NCBI RefSeq assembly: GCF_965214065.1
Contig: NZ_CBDCAT010000026.1
Location: forward strand, 180,922-244,921
From: Candidatus Poriferisocius sp.
GTDB taxonomy: Bacteria; Actinomycetota; Acidimicrobiia; Acidimicrobiales; Bin134
Direction: 5' to 3'
Length of the DNA: 64,000 bases
In this document: positions 43,815 to 59,678 of the stretch, piece after piece
Numbering within the stretch: the first letter of the stretch is position 1
How the letters are laid out: each line of letters opens with the position of its first letter
Notes under the pieces: generated by a model
The model's database searches: none
Seen by the model: the letters and a program-made list of their open reading frames with translations, nothing else
What the model was told of the DNA's origin: nothing
Position numbers and translations under genes: made by a program

Positions 43815-45527
43815 TCATACGCCTTCGGTCTCGTCCAGGATCTCATCCAATCTAAGGATGTCGTCGGCTCGCACCACTCCTATGAAGGTGCCGTCGTCGT
43901 CGGTCACCGGAAGTTGATCGGTGTCGTAGCCATCCATCTGGGCCACCGCGTCGCGCAGCGTCCACGAAGGACGGGCCGTGGGCAGATCGCGTCGGGCGAT
44001 ATCGGCGACCAGCGTGTCGTTCCAAAGATCGCGCTCCAACTCGCTCATCTGCTCTAGGCCGCACATCCCGAGGTACGAACCACCGTCGACCACCGGAACT
44101 TCCCGCTCGCGTCGGCCGAGAAGGTGGATGTACACCAGCTCGCTCACCGTGGCATCGGGGGGCACGGTGAGGGTGTCGGTGGTTAGCGCGGAGGTGAGCG
44201 GCAAGGCGAGCCGGCGCTCGACGAGCCCCTCTCGTTTCTCAAGCTGGTAGGAAGCCACCGAGCTGGATCCGACTACCAGCTGCGACACCGCGGCGGCTAT
44301 CAGCGCGGGGACCACGAACACCGACGCTCCGGTGCTCTCGGCCACGAACATAACCGCAGTTATGGGCGCCCGATATCCGGCACCCAAAAAGGCCGCCAGC
44401 CCCAGCGTGCGGTACAGCCCGATGTCTGCCACCCCCATGGCCTGGCCCACGAAGCTGCCCACGATCACTCCCTGGACAGCCAGGGGTATGAACAAACCGC
44501 CGGTACCCCCGGCGCCCACGGTGGTGAGGGTGGCGACCACCCTGAAGACCAGAAGGCTGCCGATGAGCAGCAGCGTGTGCTCTCCGTCTCGCAGCCATTC
44601 GGTGGCCTCCACACCGGGGCCCAGGCTCAAAGGCTGGTCGAAAACGGCGTCGGTAGCCACCACCAGTCCAGCCAGCACCGCACCGCCGAGCAGGATTCTG
44701 ACGCCAACGGGGTACTGCCGCTCCAATTCCTTGGCCTGGCGCACCAGCCAGGCGAATCCCCGACCGCCCAGCCCGGCTACCAGGCCGAGCAGCGCGCCCC
44801 CGCCCAAATGGATGATGCTGAGATTTCCGGTATGGCTGCCCAGATCGATAACCGGGTCGGTGCCCAGCACAGCCACGTACACCAGGTAGCCCGATGCGGA
44901 GGCCAGAAGCGCCGGCAGCAGCGCCCGGCGGGCCACGTCATCGCGATAGGGCGCCTCCAGGGCGAAGATCACCCCGGTGGCCGGGGTCTTGAACACCGCG
45001 GCTATGCCAGCGGCTGCCCCCGCGGTGAGCAGCAACTTGGCTTCCTCCCGACGCAGCCACCGGCCGAACAGACCCTGGGTGCTGTGGCCGACGGTGGCAC
45101 CGGCATAGACCGAAGGGCCCTCAAGTCCCACCGAGCCACCCAGGCCGATGGTGGCCACGCCGGCCAGTAGTTTGGCGGGAAGCTGGGAGAGGGGCAATCG
45201 GGGGTGGCGCTCATGGAAGGCCCGCACGTATTCGTCGGAGGTCGACGGGGTGGCGCCCCGCCCGATATAGCGCAAAATGGCCACCGCGGCGAACAGGCCG
45301 ACTGCTGGAGCCGCCGCCTGCCACCACAGAGGGCCATGCAGAATGCGCTCCAACAGCACCTCGACAGTCAGTTGCTCGAACCCGGCCACCAACAATCCCA
45401 CCAAAGCTCCGGTGAGGATAGAGAGCACCATCATCGCCGGGAAGGCCCGTCTCGGCCGGAAGGAGGCCAGCAGCCCCACTCCTGATCGCGCGATCCTTCC
45501 GCCTAGAAGAGCTTGGAGTGCTTGCAT
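43815..45527 (-). CDS. ClC-family chloride channel/transporter with a C-terminal CBS pair
   Basis: GSVGLEGP, GIFALE-type and GxFxP (GGLFIP) motifs, with a CBS-like tail. Confidence 0.85.
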   Translation of the reverse strand: MQALQALLGGRIARSGVGLLASFRPRRAFPAMMVLSILTGALVGLLVAGFEQLTVEVLLERILHGPLWWQAAAPAVGLFAAVAILRYIGRGATPSTSDEYVRAFHERHPRLPLSQLPAKLLAGVATIGLGGSVGLEGPSVYAGATVGHSTQGLFGRWLRREEAKLLLTAGAAAGIAAVFKTPATGVIFALEAPYRDDVARRALLPALLASASGYLVYVAVLGTDPVIDLGSHTGNLSIIHLGGGALLGLVAGLGGRGFAWLVRQAKELERQYPVGVRILLGGAVLAGLVVATDAVFDQPLSLGPGVEATEWLRDGEHTLLLIGSLLVFRVVATLTTVGAGGTGGLFIPLAVQGVIVGSFVGQAMGVADIGLYRTLGLAAFLGAGYRAPITAVMFVAESTGASVFVVPALIAAAVSQLVVGSSSVASYQLEKREGLVERRLALPLTSALTTDTLTVPPDATVSELVYIHLLGRREREVPVVDGGSYLGMCGLEQMSELERDLWNDTLVADIARRDLPTARPSWTLRDAVAQMDGYDTDQLPVTDDDGTFIGVVRADDILRLDEILDETEGV

Positions 45528-45561
45528 CCTGTCGGTCTCACTGCCGGTATCCTACTGGCCG

Positions 45562-47013
45562 ATGAGGTTTCTTCGAACCACTGGTAAAGACCCCCTTGTG
45601 GAGGATCTCTGCCAAGTACTGCCTGCCGACCGGGTTAGGGCCGCCACTCTGGAGCGCTCCATCATGGGCCGGGACGCCTCGATCTTCGAGGGGGGCCAGG
45701 CCGGTCCGGTGTGCTTTCCGATCAGTACTGAAGAGGTACAGGGCTGTGTGGATGCGGCGCGGCGCAACGGCCGGGCGGTGGTTCCCCGAGGGGCGGGCAC
45801 CGGTTTGGCCGGGGGGGCAGTGCCCTTGGATGAACCGGTGGTGGTGGTCACCACCAAGATGAACCGCCTGCTATCGGTGGATGCGGATCAGAGGGTGGCC
45901 TGGGTCCAGCCGGGCATGATCAACCTGGACCTCAGCCGGGCCGTGGCGGAGTATGGCCTGCATTTCGCTCCCGATCCCTCCAGCCAGCAGGTGTGTTCGC
46001 TGGGTGGAAACGTGGGCACCAACGCCGGCGGTCCCCACTGCCTGGCCCATGGAGTGACTAGTGCCCATGTGCTGGCCGCAGAGGTGGTTCTCATGTCGGG
46101 CGAGGCCGTGGTGCTGGGCGACCCCGACGGCTGGGCCCCTGGGTTGGACCTGCGGGGGGCGTATGTGGGCTCGGAGGGAATGCTCGGAATCACGACCAGC
46201 ATCGCAGTGCGGCTCACTCCGAACCCGCCCGCGGTGCAGACCCTGCTGCTGGCCTTCGACTCGGTGGACGAGGCGGCTCAGACGGTGAGCGCGGTGATCG
46301 CCGACGGCATCGTGCCCGCGGCCATCGAGATGATGGACAAGAACATCATCTGGGCAGTGGAGAACTTTGTGGGGGCTGGCTTTCCCACCGATGCGGCCGC
46401 GGTGGTGATTGTGGAGGTTGATGGGCTGCCCGGCGGGGTGGCGGCTGAGGCCGATCGGGTGGCTGAATTGGCTGTTGAGCGAGGCGGGAGCGTCCGTCGA
46501 GCAGCTGACGACAACGAGCGAGCTTTGATATGGAAGGGCCGCAAGAGCGCGTTCGGCGCCATCGCCCAGATAAAGCCCAACTACTACCTGCACGACACGG
46601 TGGTGCCCCGAACTCGACTGGCCGAGGTGATGAACCAGGTATACGAGATCGTCGAAGAGCACGATTTGCAGGTAATGAACGTGTTCCACGCCGGCGATGG
46701 CAACCTCCACCCGTTGCTGCTCTACGACCGCCGGGAGCCGGGGATCATGGACCGGGTTCACGCCGCGGGATCGGCCATCATCGAGGCCTCCTTGGCCGCA
46801 GGTGGGGTGCTGTCGGGCGAGCACGGCATCGGTATCGAGAAGCGTGATTTCATGCCGCTCATGTTCAGTGAGGCCGACTTGGACGCCCAGGCCCGGTTGC
46901 GTCAGGCGTTCGACCCTGACGAGATGGCCAACCCCGGCAAAGTGCTGCCCACCGGAGCCAGCTGCGCCGACGTGAACGCGCTCGAGAAAGTGCCCGAAGG
47001 AGTGTGGGGATAG
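45562..47013 (+). CDS. glcD: FAD-linked oxidase; glycolate oxidase subunit GlcD-like
   Basis: …VVPRGAGTGLAGGAVP… FAD-binding PCMH domain and C-terminal GEHGIG. Start at an internal Met with a canonical N-terminus. Confidence 0.85.
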   Translation: MRFLRTTGKDPLVEDLCQVLPADRVRAATLERSIMGRDASIFEGGQAGPVCFPISTEEVQGCVDAARRNGRAVVPRGAGTGLAGGAVPLDEPVVVVTTKMNRLLSVDADQRVAWVQPGMINLDLSRAVAEYGLHFAPDPSSQQVCSLGGNVGTNAGGPHCLAHGVTSAHVLAAEVVLMSGEAVVLGDPDGWAPGLDLRGAYVGSEGMLGITTSIAVRLTPNPPAVQTLLLAFDSVDEAAQTVSAVIADGIVPAAIEMMDKNIIWAVENFVGAGFPTDAAAVVIVEVDGLPGGVAAEADRVAELAVERGGSVRRAADDNERALIWKGRKSAFGAIAQIKPNYYLHDTVVPRTRLAEVMNQVYEIVEEHDLQVMNVFHAGDGNLHPLLLYDRREPGIMDRVHAAGSAIIEASLAAGGVLSGEHGIGIEKRDFMPLMFSEADLDAQARLRQAFDPDEMANPGKVLPTGASCADVNALEKVPEGVWG

Positions 47014-47925
47014 GTGACCGGCGGGGAGGCCGGAGAAGCGCTGGAGTCGTTCGCCGCCGAGGTGGGGGCAGATGGCCCAGTGGCTGTGGTCGGCGGACGT
47101 ACCCACTGGGAGGTGGGGGGGCGGTGCCCCGAAGAGACCCGCTTGATGCGGGCTCCGGTGGGAGTGCGGAGTTTTGACCCGGCCGACATGACCATTCGGG
47201 TGGGCGCCGGTACGCCGGCTGAGGAACTCGACACCGCGCTGGCCGAGGCCGGGCAGCGGGCCAACTTGCCGGTATTACCAGGAGCCACCGTGGGCGGTGT
47301 GCTGGCCGTGGGACGCGATGATGAGCATGCTCTGGGCCGAGGGCGGCTTCGCGACGCCCTTTTGGAAGCGGTCTATGTGGCCGACGACGGCCGCCTGGTC
47401 ACCGCAGGCGGCCCGACGGTCAAGAACGTGTCGGGCTTCGACCTATGCCGCCTGCTGGTGGGATCGCTGGGCACACTAGGGCTGCTGGGGGAAGTGATTC
47501 TGCGCACCTGGCCCCGGCCAGCGACCCAGCGATGGCTAGCGGGGCCGTGCGATCCGGTGGAGTTGCGTCGCCTCCTGTTCAGCCCGTCGTCCATCCTGTG
47601 GGACGGCAACACGGTTTGGGTCCATCTGGAGGGCCATGAGTCGGATGTGGAGGCCGAGACTGATCTGGCTCGGTCGCTGGGCTGCGAGCCAACCGATGGA
47701 CCGCCGCCTTTGCCTGCCTATCGGGTACCGACAGGCGCGCTGAAGGCCGAGGGATTCCCCGGCAACTATGTGGTGCAGGTCGGCACCGGATCGGCTTATG
47801 TGTCGGAGCCGATTTCACTTTCCGAGCCCGACCCCGCGGTTATTTCGCTGCACCGGCGGCTGAAAGCCCAGTTCGACCCCCGAGGTCGTCTCAACCCCGG
47901 GCGCGACCCGCTGGCGGCGGCATGA
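47014..47925 (+). CDS. glcE: glycolate oxidase FAD-binding subunit GlcE-like
   Basis: FAD_binding_4-like (…KNVSGFDLCRLLVGSLGTLG…). Positioned between glcD and glcF. GTG start abuts the glcD stop. Confidence 0.75.
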   Translation: MTGGEAGEALESFAAEVGADGPVAVVGGRTHWEVGGRCPEETRLMRAPVGVRSFDPADMTIRVGAGTPAEELDTALAEAGQRANLPVLPGATVGGVLAVGRDDEHALGRGRLRDALLEAVYVADDGRLVTAGGPTVKNVSGFDLCRLLVGSLGTLGLLGEVILRTWPRPATQRWLAGPCDPVELRRLLFSPSSILWDGNTVWVHLEGHESDVEAETDLARSLGCEPTDGPPPLPAYRVPTGALKAEGFPGNYVVQVGTGSAYVSEPISLSEPDPAVISLHRRLKAQFDPRGRLNPGRDPLAAA

Positions 47926-49085
47926 GTGCAAGGGTCTCACTGGGAATCAATCCTGAGGAACTGGCCTCGTGCGTGGCGTGTGGGCTGTGTTTGCCTCACT
48001 GCCCGACGTTTCGGGTAACCGGTGAAGAGTGGGCCTCGCCCCGGGGGCGAATCAGCGCCATGCGCCAGGTGCAGGATCAGGGCGCGGCCATCGACCAGGC
48101 GTTCTTGTCTTCGATGGACACTTGTGTGCAGTGCCGGGGTTGCGAACCGGCCTGTCCGTCGGGGGTGCCGTTCGGCTCGATGATGGAAGCCACTCAGGCC
48201 GAAATGAACCGTCAGCGGCGGGTGGACTGGCGTCGGTGGAGGTTTCGGCTTCTCGGACGTCCTCGACTGCTGAACCTGCTGTCGCGGATGCTGGCCGTGG
48301 CCCAGCGGCTGCGGCTAGTGCCATCCAAGAGGCTGGGGTTGCCCAAGATTCCCCTGCGACAAGATCGGCTTCAAGCTTCGGGCGACGACGTGTGGCTGTT
48401 CACCGGTTGCGTGATGGACGCCTGGCAGCGGTCGACCCATGCGGCGGTGAAGCGGGTGGTGGAAGCAACTGGGGCCGGGGTGGCTCTGCCCGGTGCCGGT
48501 GCCGCGTGCTGCGGAGCGCTTTCGCTCCACGCTGGCTTGGATGACCATGCCCGCTCATTGGCGGTGCGAACGATGAAGACTCTGGACGGCTCGGCCCCGA
48601 TTCTGGTGGACTCGGCGGGATGCGGGGCCGCCCTCAAGGAGTATGGCAAGCACTTGGGCACGCTAGAGGCCATTGCCTTCAGCGAGCGGGTGCTGGACGT
48701 CCACGAGTGGCTAGCGGCCCATGCCGACCGACTGCCATTGGTGGGGGAGCAGGCTGAGGAACTGACCGTGGCGGTTCACGACCCCTGCCATCTGCGCCAT
48801 GTGCAGCGGGCGCATGAGCCCGTAGCCGAGGTACTGGCCCGCTACGCCAACGTGGTGACCCTGGACGACGACGGCCTGTGCTGCGGGGCCGGTGGCGCCT
48901 ATGCGGCCATGCAACCGGATCTGGCGGCGTCGATTCGAGAGCGCAAGCTGGAGGCCATAAGGCGCTCTGGCGCAACTATCGTGGCCAGCGCCAACCCCGG
49001 CTGCACCATCCATTTGGCCAACGCCGGAGTGGCAGTGCGCCACCCCCTGGAAATCGTGGACGAGGTTTTGGACAGTGACCGTTGA
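47922..49085 (+). CDS. glcF: glycolate oxidase iron-sulfur subunit GlcF-like
   Basis: Two 4Fe-4S motifs (CVACGLCLPHCP, CVQCRGCEPACP) plus Cys-rich CCG domains. Confidence 0.85.
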   Translation: MSARVSLGINPEELASCVACGLCLPHCPTFRVTGEEWASPRGRISAMRQVQDQGAAIDQAFLSSMDTCVQCRGCEPACPSGVPFGSMMEATQAEMNRQRRVDWRRWRFRLLGRPRLLNLLSRMLAVAQRLRLVPSKRLGLPKIPLRQDRLQASGDDVWLFTGCVMDAWQRSTHAAVKRVVEATGAGVALPGAGAACCGALSLHAGLDDHARSLAVRTMKTLDGSAPILVDSAGCGAALKEYGKHLGTLEAIAFSERVLDVHEWLAAHADRLPLVGEQAEELTVAVHDPCHLRHVQRAHEPVAEVLARYANVVTLDDDGLCCGAGGAYAAMQPDLAASIRERKLEAIRRSGATIVASANPGCTIHLANAGVAVRHPLEIVDEVLDSDR

Positions 49086-49551: not shown

Positions 49552-52158
49552 TTAGGTGTGTGCGGCGCGCAGCGCGGCTGTGGAGGCGGGGTCTAGGGCG
49601 AGGTAGCAGCCAAAGCTCTCGTGGTAGCCCCAGCTGACCTGGGCCAAAACGGTTTGGCGGTCGGCGGACTTCGCCACATCCACCGGCTCGGCGCCGAACT
49701 TGTGGTGGTCGAAGCACCGCTGGGCCGCCCCTGCGTCCCCGGCGGGGAACCCCTCGGGCGCCGCAGCGGCTTGGAGCACGCCCAAAGCGCCCTCATCGAG
49801 GGTGAGGTAGCAGCCGATGCTGTCGTGGTAGCCCCAGCTGAGCTGAGCCAACACAGCCTGACCGTCAGCGGACTTCGCCACATCCACCGGCTCAGCCCCG
49901 AACTTATGCACCCCAAAGCACAACTCCGCCGCGCCGCCGTCGCCGGTGTCTTCTTCGGTGTCGGTCGGGTCGGAAGCGCCGTCGCCGGTGTCTTCGGTGC
50001 CGCCGCCGGTCTCACCGGAAGCGTCGCCGTTGCCAGGTTCGGTGCCGCCGTCGCTGTCGTCTTCGATGTCAGTCGGATCAGATGCGCCGTCGCCAGGTTC
50101 GGTTTGGCCGGTGCTGTCTTGGTCGTCGCCAGGTTCGGTTTGGCCGGTGCTGTCTTGGTCGTCGCCAGGTTCGGTTTGGCCGGTGCTGTCTTGGTCGTCG
50201 CCAGGTTCGGTTTGGCCGGTGCTGTCTTGGTCGTCGCCGGTGTCGGAGGGGTCGTCGGTGGCGGTCTCGCCGGAATCGTCTTCGTCGGAGGTCCTGCTGA
50301 CATCGGTGGTGGTCTCGCCGCTGTCGGAAACAGTGACAGGCACCGTGGTTGTCCCACCCGACCCGACGGGTACTCCCTCCAAGGTTATCGACGTTGTCAC
50401 ACTGGGAGGTGTTAACTGGAGGCCCAAGATGTTACCCCAGCAGTCGATGGTTTGGTCGGCGGCGATGGCGCAGGCGTGGCTGCCGCCTGCGGCGATGGCG
50501 GTGTATTGGCCATCGGGCGCGTCGGTCTGCCCGTCACTGTTCCAGCCCCAGCAGTCGATGGTTTGGTCGGCGGCGATGGCGCAGGCGTGGCTGCCGCCTG
50601 CGGCGATGGCGGTGTACTGCCCGTCGGGCGCGTCCGCCCGGCCCTCCCCGTTGTTGCCCCAGCACTCGATGGTTTGGTCGGCGGCGATGGCGCAGGCGTG
50701 GCTGCCGCCTGCGGCGATGGCGGTGTATTGGCCATCGGGCGCGTCGGCCCGGCCGTACCAGCTGGAGCCCCAGCAGTCGATGGTCTGGTCGGCGGCGATG
50801 GCGCAGGTGTAGTCGCCGCCTGTGGCGATGGCGGTGTATTGGCCATCGGGCGCGTCGGTCTGGCCGACAGGGTTGAGGCCCCAGCAGTTGATGGTTTGGT
50901 CGGCGGCGATGGCGCAGGCGTGGTTGGCGCCTGCGGCGATGGCGGTGTATTGGCCATCGGGCGCGTCCGCCTGGCCGCTCCAGTTGCCACCCCAGCAGTC
51001 GATGGTTTGGTCGGCGGCGATGGCGCAGGCGTGGTCGTTGCTTGCGGCGATGGCGGTGTATTGGCCATCGCGCGGGTAGGTCTGGCCGTACCAGCTGCCG
51101 CCCCAGCAGTCGATGGTCTGGTCGGCGGCGATGGCGCAGGTGCGGTTGACGGCGGCAGTGATGGCGGTGTATCGGTCGTCGGTTGGGATATGCACTGTCA
51201 TTTGCCAGTCGTCTCCGGGGTAGAGGTCTTGCGCGGTGTGGGTCCCGTCGTCGCCGGTAGCAGCCTGGAAGAATCCTGTTCCTGTGGTGTAGAAGGGGCT
51301 GGGGGGCATCGACTGGTAGGGGTTCTGGGAGGTGATCCAGCCTGTGACGGGGATGCCTTGGAGGGGTTGGCCGTCGGCGTCGGCGACTGCAACGGTGATG
51401 CGTCCTGCCCGCAAAACTTCCACGGTGCCGGCGTTTGTGGTCTGGCCGGCGGCTACCTCGACTTCGGCGGCGGCGTTGTTGGCGAGGTGGCCTGCGCCGT
51501 GGTTGCCGTGGGCGATGCGGTAGGTGCCGGGGGGGACCGGCGGGGAGGTGAACTCGCCGGTCTGGAGGTCGACGTCGAGCAGCCAGTCACCGCTGCCCCA
51601 TAGCGCGTAGTCTCCGTCGGGGGGAGGCCCGCCGTCGGAGCCCGTGAACCGGCCCGACACCCGGCCGCCGGCCTCGAGCTCGACGTCGATGCCTGACAGC
51701 GACTCCCAACTCCACAGTTGCTCATAGCCGTAGCCGTCGATGAAGCGGGTAGCGAGGTTTGCGCTGCGGTCCCAGACCATCAGCGTCAGGTTTTCCAGGT
51801 TTTCGCCTCTTGTGACGGTCACCGACCACCGGCCCGAGCTGTCGACTCCGGTCTCGGCGAGGTACACTACCGAATACCCCTCCAGCGGCCGGGGGCGTTG
51901 GGAGCCGTCATCGGCCAGCCCGGCCGCGCACTCCCCCCAGCATCCCGCCACCACCGTGACCGCCACATCGGCGGTCGACACGCCGCTCGGGGCGGCGACA
52001 GTGCCGCTGAAGGTGGCCGCGCTGTCCTGCGCCGCAGCCGGCCCGGCCGCAGAAGACCCCAGCAAAGCAGCCACCAGCGCGACGGCCACCAACAACGCGG
52101 CCCTCATACTGCCTGCGGCCCCGCTGGTGTTTGCCGGCGACTCGCTATAACAGAACAT
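49552..52158 (-). CDS. secreted multidomain protein: signal peptide, beta-sandwich (carboxypeptidase-regulatory-like) domains, 7-bladed short RCC1-like propeller, acidic linker, two C-terminal two-Cys modules
   Basis: AGGAG RBS 8 nt before the ATG at 52158. Signal peptide …MRAALLVAVALVAALLGSSAAGPAAAQD. Seven repeats of DGQYTAIAAG..H.CAIAADQTIDCWG.N..GQ.DAP. A D/E/T/G-rich linker. C-terminal 2x CF.HHKFGAEPVDVAKSAD.Q.VLAQ.SWGYH.S.GCYL.LD. Confidence 0.85.
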   Translation of the reverse strand: MFCYSESPANTSGAAGSMRAALLVAVALVAALLGSSAAGPAAAQDSAATFSGTVAAPSGVSTADVAVTVVAGCWGECAAGLADDGSQRPRPLEGYSVVYLAETGVDSSGRWSVTVTRGENLENLTLMVWDRSANLATRFIDGYGYEQLWSWESLSGIDVELEAGGRVSGRFTGSDGGPPPDGDYALWGSGDWLLDVDLQTGEFTSPPVPPGTYRIAHGNHGAGHLANNAAAEVEVAAGQTTNAGTVEVLRAGRITVAVADADGQPLQGIPVTGWITSQNPYQSMPPSPFYTTGTGFFQAATGDDGTHTAQDLYPGDDWQMTVHIPTDDRYTAITAAVNRTCAIAADQTIDCWGGSWYGQTYPRDGQYTAIAASNDHACAIAADQTIDCWGGNWSGQADAPDGQYTAIAAGANHACAIAADQTINCWGLNPVGQTDAPDGQYTAIATGGDYTCAIAADQTIDCWGSSWYGRADAPDGQYTAIAAGGSHACAIAADQTIECWGNNGEGRADAPDGQYTAIAAGGSHACAIAADQTIDCWGWNSDGQTDAPDGQYTAIAAGGSHACAIAADQTIDCWGNILGLQLTPPSVTTSITLEGVPVGSGGTTTVPVTVSDSGETTTDVSRTSDEDDSGETATDDPSDTGDDQDSTGQTEPGDDQDSTGQTEPGDDQDSTGQTEPGDDQDSTGQTEPGDGASDPTDIEDDSDGGTEPGNGDASGETGGGTEDTGDGASDPTDTEEDTGDGGAAELCFGVHKFGAEPVDVAKSADGQAVLAQLSWGYHDSIGCYLTLDEGALGVLQAAAAPEGFPAGDAGAAQRCFDHHKFGAEPVDVAKSADRQTVLAQVSWGYHESFGCYLALDPASTAALRAAHT
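50092..50235 (-). repeat. 4 x 36-bp perfect in-frame tandem repeat (encodes DDQDSTGQTEPG x4)
   Basis: Plus strand gccaggttcggtttggccggtgctgtcttggtcgtc occurs four times head-to-tail. Confidence 0.9.
50424..51177 (-). repeat. array of 7 RCC1-like blade repeats (~114-117 nt each) with long near-identical nucleotide stretches
   Basis: Recurrent cagcagtcgatggt(t/c)tggtcggcggcgatggcgcagg(c/t)gtgg… motif. Alternate-frame track ORFs here are periodic artefacts of it. Confidence 0.85.
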
Positions 52159-52211
52159 GGCGGGAACTCTCCTGAAAAAGGCGGGCACTGACGGCCATCA
52201 TGGTCGTACAA

Positions 52212-52225
52212 CCCCCCCCCCCCCC
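52212..52225 (-). repeat. G14 homopolymeric tract (C14 on the plus strand), 53 nt upstream of the 52158 start codon
   Basis: Plus strand …tacaa-cccccccccccccc-gcaaatctg… counted directly as 14 nt. Confidence 0.95.
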
Positions 52226-52258
52226 GCAAATCTGCGTACGGGCGTCAGCGGCCAGCGC
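52226..52258 (-). promoter_or_regulatory. conserved 33-nt element abutting the G14 tract (copy 1)
   Basis: gcaaatctgcgtacgggcgtcagcggccagcgc is identical to 56445-56477. Similarity is lost beyond it. Confidence 0.6.
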
Positions 52259-52419
52259 CTTGCCGTTGGCGCAGCACTTCGAGGTTGTCGACCGATGTGG
52301 GCCCGCCGGGCAAAAGCCATTGGGCCCGTAGCCAGTCGGACTCTGCTGACACGAAGTCGCCCAAGTTGAAGCAGGCGGCGCCCCGCTTGCTGAAAACCCG
52401 ATTCGAGCCAGTGCGCGCG

Positions 52420-55400
52420 CTAGGTGTGCGCGGCGCGCAGCGCGGCTGTGGCGGCGGGGTCTAGGGCGAGGTAGCAGCCGAAGCTCTCGTGGTAGCCCCA
52501 GCTGACCTGGGCCAAAACGGTTTGGCGGTCGGCGGACTTCGCCACATCCACCGGCTCGACCCCGAACTTGTGGTGGCCGAAGCACCGCTGGGCCGCCCCC
52601 GCGTCCCCGGCGGGGAACCCCTCGGGCGCCGCAGCATCTTGGAGCACGCCCAAAGCGGCCTCATCGAGGGTGAGGTAGCAGCCGATGCTGTCGTGGAAAC
52701 CCCAGCTGAGCTGAGCCAACACAGCCTCGCCGTCAGCAGACTTCGCCACATCCACCGGCTCAGCCCCGAACTGGTGCACTGCGAAGCAACGCTCCGCCGC
52801 ACCATCGTCTTCGGGTTCAGCCTCGCCGGAGTCTTTGCCCCCGTCTTCGGGTTCGGCCTCGCCGGAGCCCTCGCCCCCGTCTTCGGGTTCAGCCTCGCCC
52901 GAGGGGTCGCCGGTGTCGGTCTCGCCGGAGGGGTCGCCATCGCCTTCGGTTTCAGTACCGCCGGAGCCCTCGCCGCCGCCGGTGTTGGAGGGATCGTCGG
53001 TGTCGGTCTCGTCGGAAGCGCTGTCGCCGGAGGTCCTGCTGACGTCGGTGGTGGTCACGCCGCTGTCGGAAACGGTGATATGCACTGTGGTTGTCCCTCC
53101 CGACCCGACGGCTACTCCCTCCAACTCCAAGGTTGTCGAATCGATGGGTGTTGCCTGGCCGTCTCTGTTATAGCCCCAGCAGTCGATGGTGTTGTCGACG
53201 GTTATGGCGCACGAGTGGGAGTAGTCGGCGGCGATTTGGGTGTATTGCCCGTCAGGCGCGTCGGCCTGGCCGTAGTCGTTTTCGCCCCAGCAGTTGACTG
53301 TGTTGTCGACGGCGATGGCGCACGAGTAGCCGTCGCCGGCGGAGATTGCGGTGTATTGCCCGTCGGGCGCATCCGCCCGGCCGTCGTCGTTGTAGCCCCA
53401 GCAGTCGATGGTGTTGTCGACGGCGATGGCGCACGAGTAGCCGGTGCCGGCGGCAATTGCGGTGTATTGCCCGTCAGGCGCATCCGCCTGGCCCGCCCCG
53501 TTGTAGCCCCAGCAGTCGATGGTGTTGTCGGCTGCGATGGCGCAGGTGTGGTCCCAGCCGGCTGCGATGGCGGTGTATTGCCCGTCAGGCGCATCCGCCT
53601 GGCCCTCCCCGTTGTAGCCCCAGCAGTCGATGGTCTGGTCGGCGGCGATGGCGCACAAGTAGCCGTTGCCGGCGGCAATTGCGGTGTATTGCCCGTCAGG
53701 CGCATCCGCCTGGCCGGCAGGGTTGAGGCCCCAGCAGTCGATGGTTTGGTCGGCGGCGATGGCGCAGGAGTGGTCATCGCCGGTTGCGATGGCGGTGTAT
53801 TGCCCGTCGGGCGCGTCGGCCCGGCCGCTGCCGTTGTAGCCCCAACAGTCGATGGTGTTGTCGGCGGCGATTGCGCAGGAGTGGGATTGGCCGGTGGCGA
53901 TGGCGGTGTATTGTCCGTCGGTTGGGAGCTTCATTATGATTCGCCAGTCGTCTCCGGGATAGAGGTTTTGCGCGGTGTAGGCCCCGTCGTCGCCGGTAGC
54001 GGCCCCGAAGACTCCTGTTCCTGTGGTGTTGTAGAAGGGGCTGGAGGGCATCATCTGGTAGGGGTTCTGGAAGGTGACTCCGCCTGAGACGGGGATGCCT
54101 TGGAGGGCTTGGCCGTCGCTGTGGGCGATTGAGACGATTATCTGGCCGGGCTGTTGGACTCGAACGGTGCCGGCGTCTGCGGTCTGGCCGGCGGCGATTT
54201 CGATTCGGGCCGCGTCGTTGTTGGCGAGGTGGCCGCCGCCGTGGTTGCCGTGGGCGAGGCTGTACTCGCCGGGGGCCACGATTGGGGAGGTGAACACCCC
54301 GGTTTGCGGGTCGACGTCGAGGTCGAGCAGCCAGTCACCACTGCCCCATCCCCATAGCGCGTAGTCTCCGGGCGGCGGAGGCCCGCCATCGGAACCTGTG
54401 AACCGGCCCGATGCCCGGCCGCCGGTGTCGGAGGGGTCGTCGGTGGCGGTCTCGTCGGAATCGCCGTCGCCGCCGGCCTGCCCACCGCTACAGACGAGTT
54501 CTGGTTCCCCATTCCATGCCACAGTGCAATCAACGGTTCCGCCGGGGGCGACGGCTATCCCCTCCGCCGAGGCGTCAAAGACCGGCACAGGCACATTGGC
54601 CTGGCCGTACCTGTTGTTGCCCCAGCAGTCGATGGTGTTGTCGGCGGCGATGGCGCAGGCGTGGACGCCGCCGGCGGAGATTGCGGTGTATTGCCCGTCG
54701 GGCGCGTCGGCCTGGCCGTATTCGTTGTTGCCCCAGCAGTTGATGGTGTGGTCGGCGGCGATGGCGCAGGCGCCGCCGGCGGAGATTGCGGTGTATTGTC
54801 CATCGGGCGCGTCGTATTGTCCATCGGGCGCGTCGGCCTGGCCAAAGAAGTCGTAGCCCCAACAGTCGATGGTCTGGTCTACGGCGATGGCGCAGGAGCT
54901 GCCGGCGGAGATTGCGGTGTATTGCCCGTCGGGCGCGTCGGTCTGGCCAAAGAAGTCGTAGCCCCAGCAGTCGATGGTTTGGTCGGCGGCGATGGCGCAA
55001 GCGTGTAGGTGACCTGCGGCGATGGCGGTGTATTGCCCGTCGGGCGCGTCGGCCTGGCCGCTGCTGTTGTAGCCCCAGCAGTCGATGGTTTGGTCGGCGG
55101 CGATGGCGCAGGCGTGGTCGCCGCCGGCGGAGATTTCGGTGTAGTGCCCGTCGGGCGCGTCGGTCTGGCCGGAGTAGTTGTTGCCCCAACAGTCGATGGT
55201 GTAGTCGGCGGCGATGGCGCAGGTGTGGTCGCCGCCGGCGGAGATTTCGGTGTATTGCCCGTCGGGCGCATCGGCCTGCCCGTATTCGTTGTTGCCCCAG
55301 CAGTCTATGGTCTGGTCGGCGGCGATGGCGCAAGTGTGGGCGGAGCCGGTGGTGATGGCGGTGTATTGCTGTGGGATTGCGATGTTCGTTTCGATTTGCC

Positions 55401-56379
55401 AGTCGCCGGGGTACAGGTTTTGCGTGGTGTGGGTTCCGTCGTCGCCGGTGGCGGCCCAGAAGTATCCTGTTCCGCTGGTGCCGAAGGGGCTGCCGGGCAT
55501 GGACCAGTAGGGGTTTTGGGAGGATATTTCGCCTGACACGGCGACTCCTTGGAGGGGTTGGCCGTCGGCGTCGGCGATCGCGACGGTTATGCGGCCGGCC
55601 TGTTGGATTTGCACGGTGCCGGCGTCTGCGGTCTCGCCGGCGGCTACCTCGACTTCGGCGGCGGCGTTGTGGCCGAGGAAGCCTTCGCCGTGGTAGGCGT
55701 GGGCGATGCGGTGGGTGCCGGGGGGGACCGGCGGGGAGGTGAACTCGCCGGTTTGGGGGTCGACGTCGAGCAGCCAGTCGCCGCTGCCCCATAGCGCGTA
55801 GTCGCCGCCGGGCGGAGGCCCGCCATCAGACGTGGAGAACCGGCCCGACACCCAGCCGCCGGCCTCGAGCTCGACATCGGCGTCGCCGATGTCGACATCG
55901 CCGAACTCGACGCCCCCCCAGGGATCCCAAACGAAGTAATAACGGGGAGCGAGCACACCGCCCTCATCCCAAACCAGCAGATTCACATGACTCACACGCT
56001 GGCTTTGCGGCTCCGCCACGGTCATCGACCACCGGCCCGAGCTGTCCACCCCAGCCTCGCCGAGGAACTCCACCGCCTCCAAAGGCCGCGGGCGCCCGGC
56101 GGAACCCTCGGTCTGCCCCCCGCCATCGCAGCCGCCCCAGCAGAAAGCCACCACCGACACAACCACACCGTCCGTGGACACACCCACAGGAGCAGAGACC
56201 GTCCCGCCCAAAGACGCCATAGCGGACTGCGCCGCAGCCGGATCGTCCTGCGCCGCAGCCGGCCCGACCGCAGAAGACCCCAACAAAGCCGCCACCAGCG
56301 CAACCGCCACCAACAACGCAGCCCTCCCGCGCGTTGCCCTCCTCGCGGGGTGGTGCGGCGACAAGCTGTCTTGGTTCAT
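52420..56379 (-). CDS. secreted multidomain protein, paralog of 49552-52158 with an internally duplicated (beta-sandwich + 7-blade propeller) unit, acidic linker and two C-terminal two-Cys modules
   Basis: GAGGAGG RBS 9 nt before the ATG at 56379. Signal peptide …RGRAALLVAVALVAALLGSSAVGPAAAQDD. Two separate arrays of seven RCC1-like blades. The C-terminus is near-identical to that of the paralog. Confidence 0.85.
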   Translation of the reverse strand: MNQDSLSPHHPARRATRGRAALLVAVALVAALLGSSAVGPAAAQDDPAAAQSAMASLGGTVSAPVGVSTDGVVVSVVAFCWGGCDGGGQTEGSAGRPRPLEAVEFLGEAGVDSSGRWSMTVAEPQSQRVSHVNLLVWDEGGVLAPRYYFVWDPWGGVEFGDVDIGDADVELEAGGWVSGRFSTSDGGPPPGGDYALWGSGDWLLDVDPQTGEFTSPPVPPGTHRIAHAYHGEGFLGHNAAAEVEVAAGETADAGTVQIQQAGRITVAIADADGQPLQGVAVSGEISSQNPYWSMPGSPFGTSGTGYFWAATGDDGTHTTQNLYPGDWQIETNIAIPQQYTAITTGSAHTCAIAADQTIDCWGNNEYGQADAPDGQYTEISAGGDHTCAIAADYTIDCWGNNYSGQTDAPDGHYTEISAGGDHACAIAADQTIDCWGYNSSGQADAPDGQYTAIAAGHLHACAIAADQTIDCWGYDFFGQTDAPDGQYTAISAGSSCAIAVDQTIDCWGYDFFGQADAPDGQYDAPDGQYTAISAGGACAIAADHTINCWGNNEYGQADAPDGQYTAISAGGVHACAIAADNTIDCWGNNRYGQANVPVPVFDASAEGIAVAPGGTVDCTVAWNGEPELVCSGGQAGGDGDSDETATDDPSDTGGRASGRFTGSDGGPPPPGDYALWGWGSGDWLLDLDVDPQTGVFTSPIVAPGEYSLAHGNHGGGHLANNDAARIEIAAGQTADAGTVRVQQPGQIIVSIAHSDGQALQGIPVSGGVTFQNPYQMMPSSPFYNTTGTGVFGAATGDDGAYTAQNLYPGDDWRIIMKLPTDGQYTAIATGQSHSCAIAADNTIDCWGYNGSGRADAPDGQYTAIATGDDHSCAIAADQTIDCWGLNPAGQADAPDGQYTAIAAGNGYLCAIAADQTIDCWGYNGEGQADAPDGQYTAIAAGWDHTCAIAADNTIDCWGYNGAGQADAPDGQYTAIAAGTGYSCAIAVDNTIDCWGYNDDGRADAPDGQYTAISAGDGYSCAIAVDNTVNCWGENDYGQADAPDGQYTQIAADYSHSCAITVDNTIDCWGYNRDGQATPIDSTTLELEGVAVGSGGTTTVHITVSDSGVTTTDVSRTSGDSASDETDTDDPSNTGGGEGSGGTETEGDGDPSGETDTGDPSGEAEPEDGGEGSGEAEPEDGGKDSGEAEPEDDGAAERCFAVHQFGAEPVDVAKSADGEAVLAQLSWGFHDSIGCYLTLDEAALGVLQDAAAPEGFPAGDAGAAQRCFGHHKFGVEPVDVAKSADRQTVLAQVSWGYHESFGCYLALDPAATAALRAAHT
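53147..53920 (-). repeat. RCC1-like blade array (7 repeats), C-terminal propeller of the 1319-aa protein
   Basis: GQYTAIA.G…CAIA.DNTIDCWGYN..G.ADAP repeated seven times. Confidence 0.85.
54590..55373 (-). repeat. RCC1-like blade array (7 repeats), N-terminal propeller of the 1319-aa protein
   Basis: QQYTAITTGSAHTCAIAADQTIDCWGNNEYGQADAP… repeated seven times, including two blades with shortened loops (SAGSSCAIA, SAGGACAIA). Confidence 0.85.
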
Positions 56380-56430
56380 GGCTGGGGCCTCCTCAAAGCA
56401 CAGGGCTCGCTACCCCACATTGGTCTACTG

Positions 56431-56444
56431 CCCCCCCCCCCCCC
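56431..56444 (-). repeat. G14 homopolymeric tract (C14 on the plus strand), 51 nt upstream of the 56379 start codon
   Basis: Plus strand …ctactg-cccccccccccccc-gcaaatctg… counted directly as 14 nt. Confidence 0.95.
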
Positions 56445-56477
56445 GCAAATCTGCGTACGGGCGTCAGCGGCCAGCGC
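56445..56477 (-). promoter_or_regulatory. conserved 33-nt element abutting the G14 tract (copy 2)
   Basis: Identical to 52226-52258. Confidence 0.6.
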
Positions 56478-56479
56478 TC

Positions 56480-56774
56480 TGGTGTTGGCTTGGTGACTGA
56501 ATAGCATGGCAGTGAACGTGCCGGTGGGGGGATCCGAAACACCCCTTCTCCATCCACGTTCATAGCGAGAGGTCCAGAATTCGTCCGCGCAGGTGATGGC
56601 ACCGTCGGTTTTGTGCCCGCACATGATCTCGGGACGGGAAGAGACCTCGGTGAATTGGCCGCTGAGGGTGTCAACTTGCAGCTTCCGTTGGAGGCTTAGT
56701 TGGATTCCGGTTTGGCCTCTGGGGGGAATGTGGGCCTTGTTGCTTATGTTCAGGTCATATCCAATTGATAACAA
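56480..56774 (-). pseudogene. degenerate fragment of an RCC1-like repeat gene (no credible start, no signal peptide)
   Basis: Track ORF 56376-56774 contains LSGQFTEVSSRPEIMCGHKTDGAITCADEFW…PPTGTFTAM. This resembles decayed copies of the blade consensus (GQYTxISxGxxHxCxxxxDxTIxCWG…PDGQYTAI) and runs into the 33-nt element and G tract. Confidence 0.35.
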
Positions 56775-56839
56775 GCATTATTCGCTTATTAACGTTTATT
56801 CGGGTAGTTGTTGTCACAGAGGTCGGTATACTTGCATGT

Positions 56840-58123
56840 ATGGAGTTTAGGCCTCTGGAACAGGGGAAACAGACTGGTCGAGCGCCTTCCAGGCCGGTTT
56901 GGCCGGAGGCGGCTGATGTGGCCGGGCTGTCGCTGTGCGAGCTGCGGGAGCGGCTGGGGCTGATCAAAAAAGCCGAGGCCCGGCTGGCGGCGATGAAAAC
57001 GGAGACATTGGCCGCCTATGCCAGCCGGGGAGGCGAGGGATTGGCCCGCCGGGTGGCGTTGGAGGAGTTGCAGGCTTCTAAGCAGCAGGCCCGCCGGGAA
57101 GTGGAGACCGCCTCCCAGTTCTCGCAGGTTCCCGAGACTCTCGACGCGCTGGGCGCGGGGGAGATTCCCGAGGCCCACGCCAAGCAGATCGCCAAGGCCG
57201 CATCCCAGGGGCCGGTTGACGAATCCGTGCTGGTGGAGGCGGCCCGGCGCGAGGACTTCGGAACGTTCTCCCGGACGCTTCGCGATCACCTGCATGAGCG
57301 GTCGGGCGACGATGGCAAGTCGTTGATGGCCAAGCAGCGGGAGCGCCGCTCCTTGAGCTTCTTCAAGTCTTCTGACGACGGCATGTTCATCTTGAACGGC
57401 CGGTTCGACCCGGTTGCGGGGAACCGGATCGAAGCGGCGCTGGCCGATGAGGTGCGCCGCCAGCGAAACGACAGCGACGCCGGTGATCTAACGGGGTTCG
57501 ACCAGCGGATGGCCGACGCGCTCGAGAATCTGGTCTGCGCCGACACCGGCGACCGCAAACCCCACGGCACCACACTGATATTGACGGCCGGGTGGGACGC
57601 GCTTAACCAGAAGCTGGCCGATGCCCGCCTGCTCGACGGCACACCCCTGCCGATTGACGAGGTCGTGAGACTGGCGTGCAACGCCGACATCGTGCCCGCC
57701 GTGTTCAATACCAAAGGCCAGGAACTGTGGGTAGGGCGCAAACACCGCTTGGCCACCGAAGCCCAAAGAGCCGCCCTTATCATCCGCGACAAACACTGCA
57801 TCGGCTGCGGACGATCAGCGGTGTGGTGCGAAGCCCACCACATTGAAGAATGGCTGAGCGGCGGACGCACCGACATCGACAACCTCGTTCTGGTCTGCAA
57901 AAGCTGCCACCACAACATCCACGACGACGGCTGGGTCGTGAGCAGAGACCGAAACGGCGCCTACGAACTACAACCACCACCTAGGCCCTACGCCGAATTC
58001 CCCTCTGGGCAGGCACGCTCAGGGCCATCCCTCGCCCGATCTCAATCCAATCCCGAAGCCTTTCCCGAAGTAGGCATCACCACCTGGCAGCCAAAAGAAT
58101 CCAGGCAGCTGCTATTGAGCTGA
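56840..58123 (+). CDS. HNH endonuclease with DUF222 N-terminal domain (REP13E12-like family)
   Basis: …LDALGAGEIPEAHAKQIA… (DUF222) and C-terminal …RDKHCIGCGRSAVWCEAHHIEEWLSGGRTDIDNLVLVCKSCHHNIHDDGW (HNH). Start at Met 56840, downstream of an AT-rich stretch. Confidence 0.85.
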   Translation: MEFRPLEQGKQTGRAPSRPVWPEAADVAGLSLCELRERLGLIKKAEARLAAMKTETLAAYASRGGEGLARRVALEELQASKQQARREVETASQFSQVPETLDALGAGEIPEAHAKQIAKAASQGPVDESVLVEAARREDFGTFSRTLRDHLHERSGDDGKSLMAKQRERRSLSFFKSSDDGMFILNGRFDPVAGNRIEAALADEVRRQRNDSDAGDLTGFDQRMADALENLVCADTGDRKPHGTTLILTAGWDALNQKLADARLLDGTPLPIDEVVRLACNADIVPAVFNTKGQELWVGRKHRLATEAQRAALIIRDKHCIGCGRSAVWCEAHHIEEWLSGGRTDIDNLVLVCKSCHHNIHDDGWVVSRDRNGAYELQPPPRPYAEFPSGQARSGPSLARSQSNPEAFPEVGITTWQPKESRQLLLS

Positions 58124-58166
58124 CACAGTGCTGGCGTGCCGACTAGCGGGGGTAGCATTGCCAGCC

Positions 58167-59678
58167 ATGCCCATGAAGTGGATGTGCCGTGCAATTCTCG
58201 TGGTCGCCTCTCTCGGCGCGGTGGCAGCAGTGCCCGCGGGTCCTGCCGTATCTCAGGGCGGCGCTGAGCCGAGCGCGGCGCAGCGGTGCTTTGAACACCA
58301 CAAATTCGGCGCTCAGCCCGTCGACGCGGCTAAAGCCGCCGACGGCCAAACCGTGTTGGCCCAGGTGAACTGGGGGTACCACGACAGCATCGGCTGCTAC
58401 CTCACCCTCGACGACACCGCGCTGGCCACCCTGCGAGCAGCGCCCGCCCCCAAAAACCTGCCCACTGCGGAAACCGAAGCGTCAAGACAGTGCTTCGAGC
58501 ACCACAAGTTCGGCCAACGCCCCGTCGATGTCGCCAAAACCACGGATCGCCAAACCGTCCTCGCCCGCCTCAGCTGGGGCTACCACGACAGTATCGGCTG
58601 CTACCTCACCCTCGACGACACCGCCCTAACTACTCTGCGAACCAACGCCCAACCCGAACCGACACCCGACCCGACTGTCAACCCGACCCCCGAACCGACA
58701 CCCGACCCGACTGTCAACCCGACCCCCGAACCGACACCCGACCCGACCCCCGAACCGACCCCGATTCCAGCCAGCAAGACCGGGACTGGATCAGACATCG
58801 TTGCAGTTGCACTCACCGAGGGCACCCACATAGTCGAGATTGAAGCGGCGGCAGCAACCGGACACCTCAGCGTAACCCTCAGCCAGGCGGGCTCACGATG
58901 CGACCTGCTCGTAAACGAGATCGTTGACGACCAAGGCGTGTGGACCGGACGCAAAGTGCTAAACGTCGGCGGGTTCGCCGGCTGCGAAACCGGCAACGCC
59001 GTAATCGAAGTGGATACCGAACCCGGCGCCCGATGGACCATCACCATCAACCCGACCCCCGAACCGACCCCGATTCCAGCCAGCAAGACCGGGACTGGAT
59101 CAGACATCGTTGCAGTTGCACTCACCGAGGGCACCCACATAGTCGAGATTGAAGCGGCGGCAGCAACCGGACACCTCAGCGTAACCCTCAGCCAGGCGGG
59201 CTCACGATGCGACCTGCTCGTAAACGAGATCGTTGACGACCAAGGCGTGTGGACCGGACGCAAAGTGCTAAACGTCGGCGGGTTCGCCGGCTGCGAAACC
59301 GGCAACGCCGTAATCGAAGTGGATACCGAACCCGGCGCCCGATGGACCATCACCATCAACCCGACCCCCGAACCGACCCCGATTCCAGCCAGCAAGACCG
59401 GGACTGGATCAGACATCGTTGCAGTTGCACTCACCGAGGGCACCCACATAGTCGAGATTGAAGCGGCGGCAGCAACCGGACACCTCAGCGTAACCCTCAG
59501 CCAGGCGGGCTCACGATGCGACCTGCTCGTAAACGAGATCGTTGACGACCAAGGCGTGTGGACCGGACGCAAAGTGCTAAACGTCGGCGGGTTCGCCGGC
59601 TGCGAAACCGGCAACGCCGTAATCGAAGTGGATACCGAACCCGGCGCCCGATGGACCATCACCATAGGCGGCGAGTGA
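58167..59678 (+). CDS. secreted protein: signal peptide, two N-terminal two-Cys modules, Pro/Thr linker, three identical 103-aa domains
   Basis: MPMKWMCRAILVVASLGAVAAVPAGPAVSQG signal. 2x CFEHHKFG..PVD.AK..D.QTVLA..(S/N)WGYHDSIGCYLTLDD. PEPTPDPTVNPT linker. 3x (NPTPEPTPIPASKTGTGSDIVAVALTEGTHIVEIEAAAATGHLSVTLSQAGSRCDLLVNEIVDDQGVWTGRKVLNVGGFAGCETGNAVIEVDTEPGARWTITI). Confidence 0.8.
   Translation: MPMKWMCRAILVVASLGAVAAVPAGPAVSQGGAEPSAAQRCFEHHKFGAQPVDAAKAADGQTVLAQVNWGYHDSIGCYLTLDDTALATLRAAPAPKNLPTAETEASRQCFEHHKFGQRPVDVAKTTDRQTVLARLSWGYHDSIGCYLTLDDTALTTLRTNAQPEPTPDPTVNPTPEPTPDPTVNPTPEPTPDPTPEPTPIPASKTGTGSDIVAVALTEGTHIVEIEAAAATGHLSVTLSQAGSRCDLLVNEIVDDQGVWTGRKVLNVGGFAGCETGNAVIEVDTEPGARWTITINPTPEPTPIPASKTGTGSDIVAVALTEGTHIVEIEAAAATGHLSVTLSQAGSRCDLLVNEIVDDQGVWTGRKVLNVGGFAGCETGNAVIEVDTEPGARWTITINPTPEPTPIPASKTGTGSDIVAVALTEGTHIVEIEAAAATGHLSVTLSQAGSRCDLLVNEIVDDQGVWTGRKVLNVGGFAGCETGNAVIEVDTEPGARWTITIGGE
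58741..59665 (+). repeat. 3 x 309-bp tandem repeat, copies identical by eye, in frame
   Basis: Copies start at 58741, 59050 and 59359. Alternate-frame track ORFs recur at exactly 309-nt spacing (58940, 59249, 59558) with identical translations. Confidence 0.9.

Follow-up and report, generated by a model that had tools for sequence, protein, structure and literature searches.

Introduction

Phase variation by homopolymer slippage is textbook biology of mucosal pathogens. In porA, opc, and fetA of Neisseria meningitidis, and in the vlp genes of Mycoplasma hyorhinis, where the tract is poly-A, a homopolymer in the spacer between the −35 and −10 elements works as a rheostat or an ON/OFF switch for genes encoding surface proteins. 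Each paralog of the vlp family has a tract of its own, which produces combinatorial surface phenotypes. Bordetella pertussis and Bordetella bronchiseptica carry a 'fim box' and a stretch of C residues (C10 to C18) in the promoters of fim2, fim3, fimX, and fimN; how much transcript is made depends on the length of the tract, and each paralog switches on its own (PMC1891110). In Mycobacterium tuberculosis, an intergenic homopolymer lies upstream of espA, and a 1-nt indel in it alters transcription of secreted-effector genes (PMC10334774). Our literature search returned no paper on homopolymer-slippage phase variation in sponge symbionts or Acidimicrobiia.

Here, we analyze a 64-kb stretch of DNA (hereafter, the window) from the sponge-associated actinobacterium 'Candidatus Poriferisocius', in which two paralogous genes for secreted proteins are each preceded by a run of 14 G residues. 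The Bordetella fim genes are the closest described system. As in the window, the host has a high G+C content, the genes are secreted or surface paralogs that each have a conserved short sequence and a G/C homopolymer (10 to 18 nt), and the reading frame does not include the tract. There are also clear differences. The Bordetella tract sits between the binding site of an activator (BvgA) and the −10 element, and both its variation and its effect have been measured, whereas we infer the promoter in the window. The host of the window is an uncultured actinobacterial sponge symbiont, its products are RCC1-repeat propellers rather than fimbrial subunits, and its conserved flank is the relic of the 3′ end of an upstream gene. 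The Neisseria and vlp tracts were placed in their spacers by experiment, while the −35 and −10 elements of the window are deduced from conservation, and both the taxa and the gene families differ. The espA tract shares with the window an actinobacterial host and an intergenic homopolymer near a promoter (here a putative one). However, mycobacterial tracts are about 7 nt long and are known from thousands of isolates, whereas the window tract is 14 nt long and comes from a single metagenome-assembled sequence. The window tract is probably a further homopolymer contingency locus, in a host and a gene family without an earlier description.

Results and Discussion

Two identical G14 tracts precede paralogous secreted genes

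The tract upstream of the first of these genes in the direction of transcription (gene 2) is a G14 homopolymer on the minus strand (56431 to 56444; C14 on the plus strand), a candidate slippage-prone tract. It adjoins a conserved flank of 33 nt (56445 to 56477, minus strand), which reads GCGCTGGCCGCTGACGCCCGTACGCAGATTTGC. The 47-nt block made up of flank and tract (56431 to 56477) has an exact match on the same strand at 52212 to 52258, which we call copy 1. Within the window, the 33-mer occurs only at these two places (52226 to 52258 and 56445 to 56477, both minus strand), and none of 100 shuffles contained a match. G14 or C14 runs are likewise confined to 52212 to 52225 and 56431 to 56444; the next-longest homopolymer is C8 (for example, 41726 to 41733), and dinucleotide shuffles give an expectation of 0.07 G14 runs per window. 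Both tracts far exceed the background of the window and are longer than the eight or nine G/C residues from which the mononucleotide repeat of a contingency locus is taken to be hypermutable.

The tract of copy 2 ends 51 nt before the start codon of gene 2 (ATG at 56379) and that of copy 1 ends 53 nt before the start codon of gene 1 (ATG at 52158); the two tracts are 4.2 kb apart. Similarity between the copies fades quickly on either side of the block. On the 3′ side of G14, they are only loosely alike (CAGTAGACCAATG versus TTGTACGACCATG). On the 5′ side, a weaker similarity to copy 1 extends for about 12 nt (56478 to 56489, minus strand; GCCAACACCAGA versus GCCAACGGCAAG) and delimits the duplicated cassette on its 5′ side. 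BLASTN aligns the two copies at 90% identity over 70 nt (56421 to 56489 versus 52201 to 52270). On the second exact copy, the near-equal spacing to the two start codons, and the loosely similar downstream bases, our results agree with the original prediction, which had been made from the letters of the DNA.

The reading frame of gene 2 contains a TAG at 56410 to 56412, between G14 and the ATG, which had been taken to place the tract outside the gene. We confirm this stop and find a further one at 56425 to 56427. G14 thus cannot be fused to the gene-2 reading frame, which excludes a translational frameshift switch. Since the tract is noncoding relative to the gene, any effect would have to act via transcription or the leader. 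A Shine-Dalgarno sequence, GAGGAGG (56388 to 56394, minus strand), is present as predicted, although it lies 8 nt rather than 9 nt 5′ of the ATG. We rejected a long open reading frame through the tract (56376 to 56774) as a gene, for it is a patchwork of noncoding flank and pseudogene fragment.

Gene 2 (52420 to 56379, minus strand) encodes a secreted protein of 1319 aa with RCC1_2/RCC1-like repeats. A signal peptide is followed by two modules, each with an fn3_3-like domain and an RCC1-repeat propeller, then by an acidic linker and a C-terminal tandem domain with the motif CFxHHKFG. The fn3_3-plus-RCC1 module has been duplicated internally in this gene. Gene 1 (49552 to 52158, minus strand) encodes an 868-aa secreted RCC1-repeat propeller paralog, also with a signal peptide, and the products of both genes combine RCC1_2/RCC1-like β-propeller repeats with the fn3_3-like domain. 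The earlier description of the downstream genes as secreted propeller paralogs was therefore correct. With their signal peptides and their place in a large Poriferisocius multigene family, the two genes belong to a secreted or surface paralogous family of the kind in which contingency loci are found.

Homologs of genes 1 and 2 come almost exclusively from 'Candidatus Poriferisocius' and other Acidimicrobiia MAGs, many of them labeled as sponge metagenomes. The surrounding genes also fit an actinobacterium (a GlcDEF-like oxidase, DUF222-HNH, an FbiC-like radical SAM protein, and a transaldolase). Between genes 2 and 1, the scan predicts no terminator; transcription might read through from the former into the latter, so that the separate switching of the two genes in the original prediction is only a possibility. 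An exact-protein look-up with either start codon returned no other contig with the gene-2 protein. Clustered at 90%, the gene-2 protein (P0001) is grouped with two unrelated fragments of 43 aa and 54 aa (MTAKQAFNPYLPSYEYVPDAEPH...), apparently a clustering artifact. The closest partial homolog, P0075, was set aside as a comparison because it is an internal fragment without upstream DNA.

The conserved flank is a gene-tail relic copied together with the gene

The two 33-nt copies had been regarded as independently placed elements. This part of the original prediction does not hold. On the minus strand, 14 nt of the 33-mer (56464 to 56477) are the last codons and the TGA (56464 to 56466) of a decayed Wzy_C (O-antigen-ligase-like) gene. 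The remaining 19 nt (56445 to 56463) are the start of the ancestral spacer between this gene and the RCC1 gene, and end in TTGC. In alignments, the frame of the relic ends ...GCT GGC CGC TGA within the 33-mer, which is thus the tail of an upstream gene plus the beginning of a spacer. At copy 1, the C-terminal relic of Wzy_C is much longer, comprising about 46 to 49 codons and the TGA (52245 to 52394, minus strand; tblastn match at 52251 to 52394, E = 1.7 × 10−12), and runs into the 47-nt block; about 150 nt are kept there, versus only about 45 nt 5′ of the tract at copy 2. RCC1 paralogs lie directly 3′ of a Wzy_C gene in five related loci (L003, L004, L005, L048, and L049). By these alignments, the 33-mer is a gene-tail relic that was copied together with the RCC1 gene.

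About 45 nt before the tract, the copy-2 cassette is joined to a 70-codon fragment (56487 to 56696, minus strand) from another propeller gene of this family (E = 4.6 × 10−31; 77% amino acid identity to the gene in L023). The other side of this fragment abuts the AT-rich 5′ flank of a divergent gene for a DUF222 and HNH endonuclease protein (56765 to 58123, plus strand), a conserved flank that bounds the region upstream of gene 2.

We also considered a mobile or repeated element of the MITE or REP type and rejected it, as the window holds only two copies, which are continuous with the Wzy_C tail, and the sequence is always attached to an RCC1 paralog. An exact-match scan of genome and metagenome contig collections found no exact copy of the element (CCGTACGCAGATTTGCGGGG). 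Across the window and about 0.7 Mb of related loci, there were no cases of the cassette before an unrelated gene. The original prediction had counted such an occurrence before housekeeping genes against a dedicated switch.

The proteins of genes 1 and 2 are about 66% identical, and their DNA is a mosaic in which islands of 90 to 100% identity stand on a background of 50 to 65%. The near-identical islands, within the span 49552 to 56500, are the 47-nt block, the signal-peptide region, positions +527 to +720, and the last ~340 nt. As an exact match between the paralogs, the 47-nt block ranks third, behind matches of 78 and 48 nt. Such a mosaic points to patchy gene conversion, with the tract length of 14 shared through recent copying, and recent gene conversion between tandem paralogs would best explain why the copies are identical. 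Since gene conversion accounts for the identity of the copies, this identity says nothing about function or about whether each tract is held at 14 independently. Equal length and perfect identity are therefore no evidence for the independent maintenance of two tracts.

The neighborhood of the pair appears to have been rearranged as well. The AT-rich 5′ flank of the DUF222-HNH gene (window 56700 to 56800) is about 78 to 83% identical across genomes. The gene stands beside members of the secreted family in varied arrangements (L004, 20249 to 20450; L023, 11197 to 11382; L028; L030, 9313 to 9627; and L034, 5760 to 5880); probably, this gene is a unit, either repeated or mobile, whose position flags sites of rearrangement. 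The match of its HNH part to an IscB model is weak and below the cutoff. In the window, the RCC1 pair has a GlcDEF-like operon on one side and the DUF222 gene on the other (window 45277 to 49085 versus L023 12861 to 14075). The syntenic site in L023 is without the pair, and the RCC1 genes of relatives belong to a locus with the order APH–Wzy_C–RCC1–CitMHS; the pair and the Wzy_C relic thus appear to have been transposed or copied into the window site.

The tract replaces a conserved purine-rich segment

We found seven homologous upstream cassettes before RCC1 paralogs in five other Ca. Poriferisocius–like assemblies (L048, L049 with three, L004, L001, and L050). In six of the seven, (A/T)TTGC is followed by a purine-rich segment of 13 to 15 nt and then by TAGAC or a close variant. 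One cassette (L049a; GATTTGA-G8-ATAACC) was too diverged and was left out of the spacing comparison. The purine-rich segments (GGGGGAATGAAGGGG, GGGGGAAAGGAGGG, CGGGGTAGGAAGGGA, CGAGGAAAGGGGA, TGGGGGATAGGGGAC, and the G10AGGG of L048) are 87 to 100% purine, and G14 occupies their place in the window. Across species, the segment thus takes the form of G14, G10AGGG, G8, or interrupted runs, and a single A-to-G change separates the L048 segment from G14. The distance from TTGC to the TAGAC motif is 17 nt in the window versus 13 to 15 nt in the homologs, which makes the window tracts 2 to 4 nt longer. Because the purine segment of the homologs lies at the same place and the motifs of the window are 17 nt apart, G14 can be read as a homogenized and expanded version of that segment. 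On this comparison, the tract arose when a conserved purine-rich segment turned pure G and then expanded by 2 to 4 nt. The best explanation of the 47-nt block is that it is the core of a promoter or leader cassette that travels with one subfamily of secreted RCC1-repeat β-propellers in Acidimicrobiia (Ca. Poriferisocius).

These cassettes could also be read as a fixed cis-element without any switch. The G run would then be a sequence variant of the purine-rich segment of the subfamily; it would have become uniform through a small number of A-to-G changes and perhaps neutral slippage, any heterogeneity in length would be neutral, and the copies would be alike through recent gene conversion. The interrupted purine runs at the same place in homologs (GGGGGAATGAAGGGG, GGGGGAAAGGAGGG, CGGGGTAGGAAGGGA, and G10AGGG) are what this reading expects, as is the mosaic of 90 to 100% islands in genes 1 and 2. 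Nor do the compared tracts show a length polymorphism: Both window copies are G14, and the tracts of L004 and L032, which possibly represent one sample, are both G15. Against it stand the extra 2 to 4 nt of the window tracts relative to the segment that they replaced, which suggest expansion by slippage, and the established instability of such runs; to our knowledge, G14 is physically unstable in every bacterium where tracts of this kind have been studied. Also against a fixed element are the pure tracts of G10 to G15 that arose at least three times, with unrelated flanks, and only before this family in about 0.7 Mb. We regard it as a serious alternative, though an unlikely one.

Long G tracts recur before genes of a wider secreted family

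The proteins of genes 1 and 2 both end in a tandem pair of an uncharacterized domain of about 60 aa, with the consensus CFxHHKFGxxPVDVAKxADGxTVLAxxSWGxHxxIGCYLxLD. The window encodes three such pairs (49555 to 49932 and 52423 to 52800 on the minus strand, and 58263 to 58646 on the plus strand). Copies of the domain always come in tandem pairs, N-terminal or C-terminal, in dozens of secreted proteins per Poriferisocius genome (including many of P0001 to P0189), with RCC1, CAP, fn3, SLH, or hydrolase domains as passengers. Searches of Pfam, NCBIfam, and PDB sequences gave no match to the tandem domain, and no PDB structure was matched by Foldseek at E < 0.3. Of five AF2 models, the best reached a pLDDT of 86.5 (39 to 66 for the rest); it has a helix, three strands, and a helix, twice over.

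Members with the domain at the N terminus generally carry a TAGnnT box (TAGGGT, TAGCGT, TAGCAT, or TAGTGT) 8 to 9 nt before the ATG or GTG, usually with a G/A-rich stretch on its 5′ side. Our survey of this box covered about 15 family genes in L007 to L024, L033, and L034, plus window 58150 to 58169. This position is typical of leaderless actinobacterial promoters and suggests that transcripts of this subfamily are leaderless. The third family gene of the window (58167 to 59678, plus strand) has the arrangement GGGGG-TAGCAT-N8-ATG, a putative promoter of the leaderless type. This gene also contains a 309-nt unit repeated 3.0 times at 100% identity (window 58741 to 59665), which encodes three identical modules of ~103 aa after PT-rich linkers; the repeat is a candidate for variation in copy number.

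The related loci scanned first, 585 kb in all, contain three homopolymers of at least 9 nt. All are on the coding strand, directly 5′ of CFxHHKFG-family genes, with flanks unrelated to the 33-mer of the window. In L004, a G15 (20168 to 20182) runs directly into TAGCGT, and after a further 8 nt comes the start codon (ATG) of a gene for a 660-aa secreted propeller. A G10 in L023 (9946 to 9955), also followed by TAGCGT, precedes a 5′-truncated family gene that has lost its start and signal peptide, and a G15 in L029 (9553 to 9567) lies 7 nt before a 1073-aa RCC1 gene. Four loci added later contributed a sole run of at least 9 nt, the G10 (9940 to 9949) inside the homologous cassette of L048. Every long homopolymer of the window and of about 0.7 Mb of related loci is therefore found a short way 5′ of a gene of this secreted family. 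The L004 tract is also present in a second (Logan) assembly, L032 (130 to 144), where its length is again G15, although the two may share one sample. At orthologous promoters, there is GGAAAGGGGGAGG in L034 and no run in L033. Given the conservation of the TAGnnT box in the N-terminal-domain members, the L004 and L023 tracts abut a well-supported, if putative, −10 box (TAGCGT). In these loci, long G tracts (G10 to G15) thus arose repeatedly, at least three times, and only before this secreted family. A metagenome scan with G10+TAGCGTSRCC for tracts of the L004 type elsewhere was discarded, as its 13 matches were all unrelated noise.

These further tracts bear on whether the G14 runs are real. 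No feature of a long-read consensus is less reliable than homopolymer length; read errors, polishing, or the poly-G signal of two-color Illumina chemistry could in principle have made the run or set its length, and an assembler that collapsed the two copies could have made their lengths equal. However, both tracts are internal, with flanks that are unique and different on each side, and they occupy homologous positions of a conserved cassette. Comparable tracts also appear in independent assemblies from other samples and platforms (L004/L032, L029, and L048). We therefore consider an assembly or sequencing artifact very improbable.

A candidate promoter spans the tract

The motifs on either side of G14 resemble the two elements of a promoter. 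A −35-like TTGCGG (56443 to 56448, minus strand) lies at the 3′ end of the 33-mer, and its last two bases are the first two of G14. Beyond the tract, the minus strand reads CAG-TAGAC-CAATGT (56417 to 56430), in which TAGAC (56423 to 56427) is followed by CAATGT (56417 to 56422) as a candidate −10 element; ACCAAT (56419 to 56424, minus strand) is an alternative candidate. An nAnnnT hexamer follows the TAGAC-like motif in seven of eight cassettes, with CAGCAT, AACTAT, AACCAT, and AACCCT as examples from homologs. The spacer between TTGCnG and nAnnnT is 16 to 18 nt in the homologs. In the window, with G14, it is 20 and 21 nt (to CAATGT and CATGAT), and the alternative hexamers GACCAT and ACCAAT would give an 18-nt spacer.

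Our preferred reading, in which we have moderate confidence, is that a slippage-prone tract lies in or next to the spacer of a σA-type promoter and acts as an expression switch. TTGCnG would be the −35 element and the nAnnnT after TAGAC the −10 element. The uninterrupted G14 would slip during replication, and the gain or loss of G residues would change the geometry of the promoter, which would raise or lower the transcription of gene 2, and gene 1 would be controlled likewise through copy 1. With such variation in tract length, cells of one population would differ in their output of these surface or secreted proteins. If CAATGT and CATGAT are the true −10 elements, a run of 14 would leave the promoter weak or OFF, with an optimum at about G10 to G12. 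We expect G14 to be hypermutable from the known behavior of G/C tracts of this length and from the NucS-type repair genes that we found in related loci. The NucS-type pathway is not known to correct homopolymer indels efficiently. The contingency-switch reading of the original prediction thus survives in part: The identical copies, the position outside the frame, and the tie to secreted paralogs stand, while the free-standing element does not.

General promoter searches do not single out this site. A strict σ70 scan gave no promoter at either window copy or at the L004 tract, and a terminator scan of the same places was likewise blank. The relaxed motif TTGCSG-N16-19-NANNAT was found twice in the window versus 2.35 times expected from shuffles, which is no enrichment, and a TAnnnT box is absent downstream of the tract at both window copies. 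The conserved purine-rich composition is unusual for a promoter spacer and is just as compatible with the binding site of a ribosome or of a protein. Moreover, the RCC1 genes lie directly after Wzy_C in relatives and may be cotranscribed with it, in which case the tract would be part of a transcribed leader. The genome and metagenome collections that we scanned contained no second assembly of the window organism; both window copies are G14.

A purine-rich leader invites a translational reading. G14 could be the Shine-Dalgarno sequence of a tiny upstream open reading frame (uORF), and its length or sequence could tune translation of the main gene by coupling or occlusion; in a variant, poly-G in the mRNA would form a G-quadruplex or pair with a C-rich stretch near the start codon. 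Copy 2 does have a 14-codon uORF (MWGSEPCALRRPQP*; 56376 to 56420, minus strand), and its TGA overlaps the ATG of gene 2 (ATGA). An ATG lies 9 to 11 nt after the purine run in seven of nine cassettes, and a segment that is 87 to 100% purine would suit a ribosome-binding site. However, the uORF varies from 1 to more than 30 codons without a conserved peptide, and the L050 cassette has no uORF ATG. The function of the uORF is doubtful, since neither its length nor its sequence is conserved among the homologous cassettes. The main genes also carry strong Shine-Dalgarno sequences of their own. RNA folds are no more stable than those of shuffles (z = +0.1 to +2.2), and the window has no Rfam match; on these two results, we also rejected a structured cis-regulatory RNA. 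A leader or translational device is thus improbable, more so than a fixed cis-element.

Implications for sponge symbionts

Secreted eukaryote-like proteins are thought to mediate host recognition or evasion. If the tracts described here vary, then sponge symbionts would generate diversity in such proteins within a population. The locus also outlines a route by which a tract of this kind may come about: A purine-rich promoter or leader segment turns into pure G, expands, and spreads by gene conversion between tandem paralogs. Under the promoter-switch reading, the window tracts would represent a spacer state longer than the 16- to 18-nt optimum of the homologs. We propose only tentatively the broader idea that uncultured sponge-associated Acidimicrobiia use slippage-prone poly-G tracts in promoters to vary single members of a very large family of secreted eukaryote-like repeat proteins, in which RCC1 propellers and other passengers are attached to the common CFxHHKFG tandem domain. 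If true, host-interaction proteins would in effect be phase-variable in what is presumed to be a mutualist.
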